This document shows, piece after piece, positions 17,559-17,626 of a stretch of 64,000 nucleotides of DNA. The translations under genes and the position numbers were made by a program. Source of the stretch: Bacteroidia bacterium (GTDB taxonomy: Bacteria > Bacteroidota > Bacteroidia > UKL13-3); contig JBILVK010000003.1 of the NCBI GenBank assembly GCA_044370475.1, positions 12,452-76,451 on the forward strand, written 5' to 3'. The notes under the pieces were generated by a model. It was not told the origin of the DNA. It ran no database searches and worked only from the letters and a program-made list of their open reading frames with translations. The number at the start of each line of letters is the position of its first letter. The first letter of the stretch is position 1.

Positions 17559-17626
17559 ATAAATAAATAAATAAATAAATAAATAAATAAATAAATAAAT
17601 AAATAAATAAATAAATAAATAAAATT
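17559..17626. repeat. (AAAT)n tetranucleotide microsatellite, about 16 units, about 100 bp upstream of the adhesin start codon.
   Basis: Perfect aaat repeats read directly from the sequence. Confidence 0.95.

Follow-up and report, generated by a model that had tools for sequence, protein, structure and literature searches.

A hypermutable ATTT tract upstream of a T9SS cargo gene in environmental Bacteroidota, a candidate expression rheostat

To our knowledge, work on SSR contingency loci has dealt almost exclusively with pathogens restricted to a host, such as Neisseria, Haemophilus, Helicobacter and Campylobacter, and the stochastic switches that we know of in Bacteroidota are DNA inversions. 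The usual phase-variation device in this phylum is the Bacteroidales inverton, in which a recombinase catalyzes the site-specific inversion of DNA between inverted repeats. The TA repeats of H. influenzae hif and the poly-G/C tracts of Neisseria porA/opc are SSRs lying within the core-promoter spacer, which spans some 16-19 bp, and in Moraxella catarrhalis uspA2 an AGAT repeat is transcribed and its repeat number tunes the expression level. In the case of the N. meningitidis nadA gene, a (TAAA)n tract that contains an IHF site precedes the core promoter, with NadR operators on either side (Metruccio et al. 2009, PMC2791445), and the repeat number results in low, medium or high expression (PMC2791445). 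In H. pylori sabA, a T-tract next to the -35 element shifts the alignment of an UP-like element, a behavior described as that of a "rheostat" (Aberg et al. 2014, PMC4081817), and the output of this adhesin gene is multiphasic and graded (PMC4081817). Finally, the H. influenzae hmw1A gene carries a heptamer SSR in its transcribed 5'UTR that forms a long hairpin processed by RNase III (PMC12721329).

The locus described here lies in a 64-kb stretch of DNA (64,000 nt, denoted here as the window) of an uncultured freshwater Bacteroidota bacterium and consists of a perfect tetranucleotide SSR at 17557-17623 on the minus strand, which reads TTT(ATTT)16 on the gene strand and (AAAT)16AAA on the plus strand. 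A perfect tract of about 16 units had been claimed in an earlier note on this DNA, and Tandem Repeats Finder confirmed it (period 4, 16.8 copies, 100% matches and no indels); the note had placed the repeat at 17559-17626, which is the right locus with the ends 2-3 bases off. The tract overlaps no ORF, and its gene-proximal end (17557) is located 95 nt upstream of the ATG at 17461, where "about 100 bp" had been estimated. Its placement between the gene and the hairpin-repeat DNA also proved correct, the hairpin-repeat blocks being found at 17804-17938 and 18028-18158. When a 5-unit probe was run over the whole window, it matched within the tract only (expectation 0.00 from 100 dinucleotide-preserving shuffles), and Tandem Repeats Finder detected no second tetranucleotide array in the 64 kb. 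The perfect tract is far beyond chance expectation and represents the long, perfect tandem repeat, with a unit of 1-7 nt, that is characteristic of SSR contingency loci.

Downstream of the tract, a secreted protein of 1081 residues is encoded at 14216-17461 on the minus strand. Its T9SS type-A C-terminal sorting domain, at residues 1005-1078, is matched by PF18962 (Por_Secre_tail; 3e-13, 50 bits vs. a cutoff of 27) and by TIGR04183 (34 bits vs. a cutoff of 23), and these matches establish the previously claimed identity of the protein as a T9SS cargo. This domain is the only family match of the protein, whose N-terminus (MKIFFKAFAILAIFFIFQPKVNA) is signal-peptide-like by inspection. An exhaustive HMMER search showed that residues ~720-990 correspond to Ig-like modules common to very large multi-repeat proteins, and that the N-terminal ~700 residues have two relatives only. 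The AF2 model, built from a five-sequence alignment and of low confidence (mean pLDDT 53.8), is all-beta, including this N-terminal region, and a Foldseek search with the model retrieved generic Ig-like matches only, with TM <0.1 when normalized to the query. The label "adhesin" given in the earlier note found no support, as no Pfam or NCBIfam adhesin family and no relevant PDB sequence match were obtained, in addition to the generic Foldseek result. Ig-like repeats common to giant surface-type proteins are compatible with an adhesin and not diagnostic of one. At the sequence level, the protein is a T9SS cargo with a surface-protein-like architecture, in which only the C-terminal domain and the Ig-like repeats are recognizable; the members of its protein cluster are annotated only as "hypothetical protein". 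On the other side of the intergenic region (17462-18217), TonB_C, Mur-ligase and T9SS-cargo genes form a divergent string. The locus has two more large genes for T9SS cargo as its neighbors, one at 8225-13231 (minus strand; eight PKD domains and a CHU_C type-B C-terminal domain) and the other at 20017-24477 (plus strand; a beta-propeller and a type-A C-terminal domain), and Tandem Repeats Finder reported no SSR upstream of either.

A key observation came from natural relatives of the window. Contigs were retrieved by an exact-protein look-up from JGI and ENA environmental metagenomes, Logan assemblies and one NCBI MAG, and were 99.8-100% identical to the window. ATTT units were counted between the exact flanks ACTGAGAATTTT and TACTAAGCCTAATGCC in 21 independent contigs spanning the tract, the counts being the assembly consensus values of JGI and ENA contigs made with different assemblers. 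The repeat was perfect in all 21, and the lengths differed by exact 4-bp whole units: n=16 was the mode (11/21 contigs), followed by n=17 (5/21) and n=14 (2/21), and n=15, n=18 and n=19 were found once each (1/21). The distribution is therefore unimodal and narrow (14-19, mode 16), with tracts of 56-76 bp compared to 67 bp in the window. Close to the tract, all 21 contigs differed in repeat length only; toward TonB this held for ~840 nt, and toward the cargo gene for ~560 nt. Moreover, eleven contigs carried no SNP over 1300+2200 nt of flank (3.5 kb), and among them n=14, 15, 16, 18 and 19 were all present; n=17 also occurred on SNP-free contigs with less flank covered. Whole-unit variation thus takes place among very close relatives and faster than in the flanks. 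Furthermore, n=17 recurred on three SNP backgrounds (the reference haplotype, L009, and those of L007 and L024), and the presence of the same n on different backgrounds indicates recurrent slippage. The tract mutates recurrently, much faster than by point substitution and in whole-unit steps, which is the signature of slipped-strand mispairing, and it is a real, hypermutable hotspot in nature. The proposal of a slipped-strand hotspot made in the earlier note is borne out by these alleles (n=14-19, in exact 4-bp steps, among 21 natural contigs): the repeat number, compared between genomes, is not invariant, and five alleles share one SNP-free 3.5-kb haplotype. A search with a two-flank gapped pattern and with a 34-nt flank gave no match in one metagenome contig collection, which evidently lacks these samples. 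On the basis of its sequence, the locus has the features of an SSR contingency locus, that is, a long perfect tract that lies upstream of a surface-type gene and differs by whole units among near-clonal genomes.

Comparison with more distant relatives extended these observations. A protein search identified orthologues of the cargo protein with 78%, 77%, 55% and 51% amino acid identity. The closest of them, from an activated-sludge lineage (L027; 79.0% DNA identity in the coding sequence), carries a perfect (ATTT)13 at the matching position and with the same upstream architecture. The contig encoding the 77% orthologue (L052) starts inside a perfect tract, whose end is again exactly 95 nt from the ATG, with no indels, so that the tract-to-ATG distance is 95 nt in all three lineages. 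The orthologues of 55% and 51% identity are found in other genomic contexts, without the tract. When the window was aligned with L027, 158 of 174 positions were identical distal to the tract, as were 86 of 94 between the tract and the ATG; the non-coding flanks were therefore 91% identical vs. 79.0% for the coding sequence, showing that the 5' region is more constrained than the gene itself, and on both sides of the tract. A scan of genome contigs with the cargo protein found no species-level relative, only a partial match of 24% identity.

The 95 nt between the tract and the ATG (17462-17556, minus strand) would comprise a candidate core promoter and a leader of ~60 nt. The three lineages share the sequence CTTA(A/T)TTTGC, containing a box TAWTTTGC, at 17532-17540, and this candidate -7 box (CTTAATTTGC, minus strand) starts 17-18 nt downstream of the tract. 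It reads TAATTTGC in two lineages and TATTTTGC in the third, both exact matches to TAnnTTGY, and the overlapping TTAATTTG agrees with the sigma-A box TAnnTTTG at 7/8 positions. In L052, 7 of the 16 nt of the spacer between the tract and the box are changed and the box is kept. The window has about one TAnnTTGY motif per kb on each strand, so that a match alone is weak; TAWTTTGC fits the Bacteroidota -7 motif and is a candidate assignment, based on a short motif and three lineages. The Bacteroidota -33 consensus is TTTG, and here the last repeat unit provides a TTTA ~19 nt upstream of the box. The definitions of TAnnTTGY and TAnnTTTG were taken from work on F. psychrophilum (PMC9723704), where TAnnTTGY is found at -12 to -5 and drives, among others, porU and the remFG-sprCDBF operon (which includes the SprB adhesin). 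If the box acted as the -7 element, the tract would extend from ~-33 to ~-100 and the leader would be ~60 nt long, in agreement with the 5'UTRs of F. psychrophilum, which average 65 nt (PMC9723704). Exact TAnnTTTG boxes were also found 4-30 nt before ~10 other start codons in the window, indicating that Bacteroidota-type promoters are in use there and, together with the T9SS domains, identifying the organism as a member of the Bacteroidota.

Several other promoter arrangements were considered. Another TAnnTTGY box (TAAATTGC), which lies 35 nt from the ATG, was discarded because it is not conserved, both sister lineages having GAAATTGT instead. A scan for sigma70-type promoters, which is not applicable to Bacteroidota, yielded fewer matches than shuffled sequences. 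The tract could also be dismissed as an SSR within the core-promoter spacer, since its 56-76 bp far exceed any -33/-7 spacer. Likewise, an invertible promoter was rejected: the only inverted repeats are the hairpin-repeat units and a small palindrome, and all 21 contigs are collinear and in one orientation. Among the genes called beside the locus, none was annotated as a recombinase.

The conserved sequence distal to the tract corresponds to a putative regulatory block (17624-17797, minus strand), of which the window contains no paralogous copy. Within it, an operator-like element (17690-17745, unstranded), 67-122 nt distal to the tract, is composed of a palindrome at 17710-17745 with 16-bp arms (ATCATGTTCAGTTTTT/AAAAATTGAACATGAT) and a third half-site, AAAACTGAACA, at 17690-17700. 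In L027, the arms and the third half-site are kept and the loop shows a single change, and the element may be a site of protein binding. A MarR-like gene (a weak HTH_27 match) is located at 24656-25285 (minus strand), 7 kb from the tract, and is mentioned as a lead only because the nadA repressor is of the MarR family. By reading the gene strand, near-identical decamers were noticed on both sides of the tract, ATTTTACTGAG distal (17624-17634) and ATTTTACTAAG proximal (17546-17556), and a third similar decamer, TTTTCACTAAG, appears 38 nt further downstream (17510-17520); the distal one bears an A-to-G change in L027. These decamers could be a footprint of the origin of the tract or repeated binding sites. 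A small ORF of 25 residues in this block (17637-17714) is unlikely to be coding, as its changes with respect to L027 are, by eye, mostly non-synonymous.

These observations could be integrated by assuming that the (ATTT)n tract acts as a spacing or phasing rheostat upstream of the promoter, a reading we favor tentatively, by analogy with the systems described above, and to which we would give somewhat less than an even chance. In this model, replication slippage would add or remove 4-bp units far faster than the surrounding DNA gains substitutions. The last units of the tract would occupy the -33 position, ~19 nt upstream of TAWTTTGC, and the remainder would form an AT-rich, UP-element-like stretch reaching ~-100, so that the gain or loss of a unit would leave the core promoter intact. 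Each unit would instead shift the conserved 174-nt upstream block and its palindrome by 4 bp, equivalent to a helical rotation of ~137 degrees, and the common alleles 16 and 17 would place the distal DNA on nearly opposite faces of the helix. Such a rotation would alter the alignment of upstream-bound factors, or of the alpha subunits of RNA polymerase, with the promoter. The predicted outcome would be differing expression levels among cell lineages, heritable and reversible, and graded rather than on/off, since a tract situated just upstream of the core promoter is expected to give a graded output, as in nadA and sabA.

The likeness to nadA is extensive. The repeat motif is the same, TAAA, AAAT and ATTT being different registers or strands of it; each tract precedes the core promoter (a candidate one here) and shares part of its length with an AT-rich, UP-like region; on the distal side of the tract comes conserved regulatory DNA, putative in our case, and changes in unit number re-space the distal elements. 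In both cases, a gene for a secreted or surface protein lies downstream, and the repeat number varies among natural isolates. However, nadA has 5-12 units, compared to 13-19 here, and its NadR (MarR-family) operators, IHF binding and expression effect are experimentally established, whereas here an operator and an effect on expression are putative. The nadA promoter is of the sigma70 -35/-10 type and not of the Bacteroidota -33/-7 type, its product is secreted as an autotransporter and not by the T9SS, and it belongs to a host-restricted pathogen, in contrast to an uncultured environmental bacterium (known from JGI/ENA metagenomes) with an activated-sludge sister lineage. The sabA tract differs in being a mononucleotide repeat that changes in 1-bp and not 4-bp steps, and its effect has been shown, whereas that of the ATTT tract would be by inference. 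With hmw1A and uspA2, the locus would share an intergenic SSR that separates an adhesin gene from the promoter upstream and whose repeat number sets the expression level, but in those genes the repeats are transcribed, whereas the favored promoter here would be downstream of the tract and no stable n-dependent structure is predicted. Finally, invertons have in common with this locus the phylum and the purpose, the stochastic variation of surface structures, although here the variation lies in SSR length, with a single orientation in 21/21 contigs.

Alternative explanations must be weighed against the rheostat. That the length differences merely reflect an assembly or sequencing artefact of a low-complexity tract, and not biology, seems to us very improbable. 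It is true that, in practical terms, the tract breaks short-k assemblies, the k=31 Logan contigs ending within it (L003-5, L013-14 and L052), and that it adjoins a chimeric-looking contig end in one NCBI MAG (L001; GCA_964544835.1, contig CAZJDT010000003.1): nt 1-146 of this contig are GC-rich and unrelated to the window, join window-like sequence at a point ~75 nt before the ATG, with the tract expected to follow, and are probably a chimeric end caused by the repeat. However, the tract is shorter than both a typical read and the large k-mers of metaSPAdes and MEGAHIT (k141), making an artefact unlikely. In addition, every one of the 21 spanning contigs combines a perfect repeat with exact flanks and whole-unit differences, the five-unit range goes well past stutter, and the alleles recur in independent samples and pipelines. 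A more substantial rival, which we regard as quite possible if on balance doubtful, is that of a functionally neutral microsatellite. In this case, a long intergenic region would simply tolerate an AT-rich stretch that is prone to slippage and polymorphic, and whose repeat number has no meaningful effect on expression of the cargo gene. The narrow, unimodal distribution around 16 would equally arise from neutral stepwise mutation under a length ceiling, and slippage by itself can keep the repeats perfect without selection. The folding predictions described below reveal no RNA structure that depends on n, and the orthologues of 51-55% identity function without the tract, which counts against the rheostat. 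Yet a neutral repeat would not readily account for a tract kept at exactly the same position in three lineages despite ~21% coding divergence, embedded in non-coding DNA more conserved than the gene, adjoining a conserved promoter-like box and being the sole such tract in 64 kb. Moreover, similarly placed tracts alter promoter output in characterized bacteria (PMC2791445, PMC4081817).

The tract could also act after transcription. A second candidate box is found upstream of it (~17664-17671), reading TTGGTTTG in the window (7/8 positions) and a perfect TAnnTTTG, TAGTTTTG, in L027. If this box were used as the promoter, the tract would fall in the 5'UTR, and (AUUU)n within a leader of ~200 nt might tune mRNA stability or translation. 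Besides the box, this possibility, which we consider rather unlikely, would fit the conservation of ~330 nt on both sides of the tract, as expected of a long leader, and has a precedent in the control of expression by 5'UTR SSRs (PMC12721329). Against it, the hypothetical leader, folded for n=0-24, is weakly structured (MFE ~-21 kcal/mol for ~240 nt), and the accessibility of the start region and the pairing of the tract are predicted to be independent of n; a structured 5'UTR SSR of the hmw1A type was discarded for this reason, as no stable length-dependent hairpin formed over that range. Pairing of an 11-nt complement, GTTTGTTTTTT (17658-17668), with the A-rich start region was rejected too, because it is not conserved in L027. 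Searches of Rfam, both at the gathering cutoff and at E<=1, returned nothing relevant at the locus, and the -7 boxes in the window, found 4-30 nt before the ATG, point to short leaders.

Returning to the rheostat upstream of the promoter, the tract may plausibly be an expression dial of the kind well known in pathogens. A wider version of this reading, possible in our opinion but more tentative, is that of a true contingency locus in free-living, non-host-associated Bacteroidota, in which the ATTT tract, serving as the -33/UP side of an SM5-like (TAnnTTGY) promoter, would re-phase a conserved upstream operator and thereby set heritable, reversible levels of a T9SS surface protein, with lake populations shifting among n=14-19 over time. 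The length variation was seen directly among otherwise identical genomes from many environmental samples, and the tract is retained across sister species. Should the tract tune expression, slippage-based bet-hedging would reach T9SS surface proteins as well as free-living Bacteroidota of freshwater and sludge, this would be the first SSR-based, and not inverton-based, variation system for a T9SS cargo, and pathogen-style contingency loci would operate in environmental bacterioplankton. The cargo could then, for instance, serve in attachment, be recognized by phages as their receptor or be a target of grazers. In line with the earlier note, which knew of no such case for T9SS cargo, no report was found in the literature searched of SSR-mediated variation of a T9SS cargo or in environmental Bacteroidota, which is weak evidence of novelty.

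Other repeats surround the locus. A direct repeat of ~305 bp (88% identity; 13902-14206 and 17801-18104), made of 52-53-bp units with ACCCCTCTGGGGT hairpins, lies on either side of the cassette formed by the cargo gene and its conserved 5' block, and could allow homologous recombination to duplicate or delete the whole cassette. Arrays of 25-bp units, each with a ATCCCTCCGGGAT hairpin (REP-like), occur on both sides of the gene (13276-13680 and 18028-18158); the corresponding array in L027 (1-560) is much longer than in the window, and two of the units gave a sub-threshold Rfam match to Acido-Lenti-1 that is probably meaningless. In L027, an IS element (4466-5826; an rve integrase and a small ORF) separates the cargo gene from the PKD/CHU_C gene downstream of it. 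Finally, tandem heptanucleotide arrays are found in intergenic regions at 53077-53211, 31240-31390, 29825-29903, 34728-34825 and 59282-59393, with locus-specific units (TTTGGTC, TTAGCTG, TTGGTCG, GGCTGCT and others), and several of them are directly upstream of minus-strand start codons, such as the ATG at 53074. Direct repeats of heptamers have also been reported from intergenic DNA of Beggiatoaceae and cyanobacteria (PMC4679880), and the arrays are reminiscent of them.
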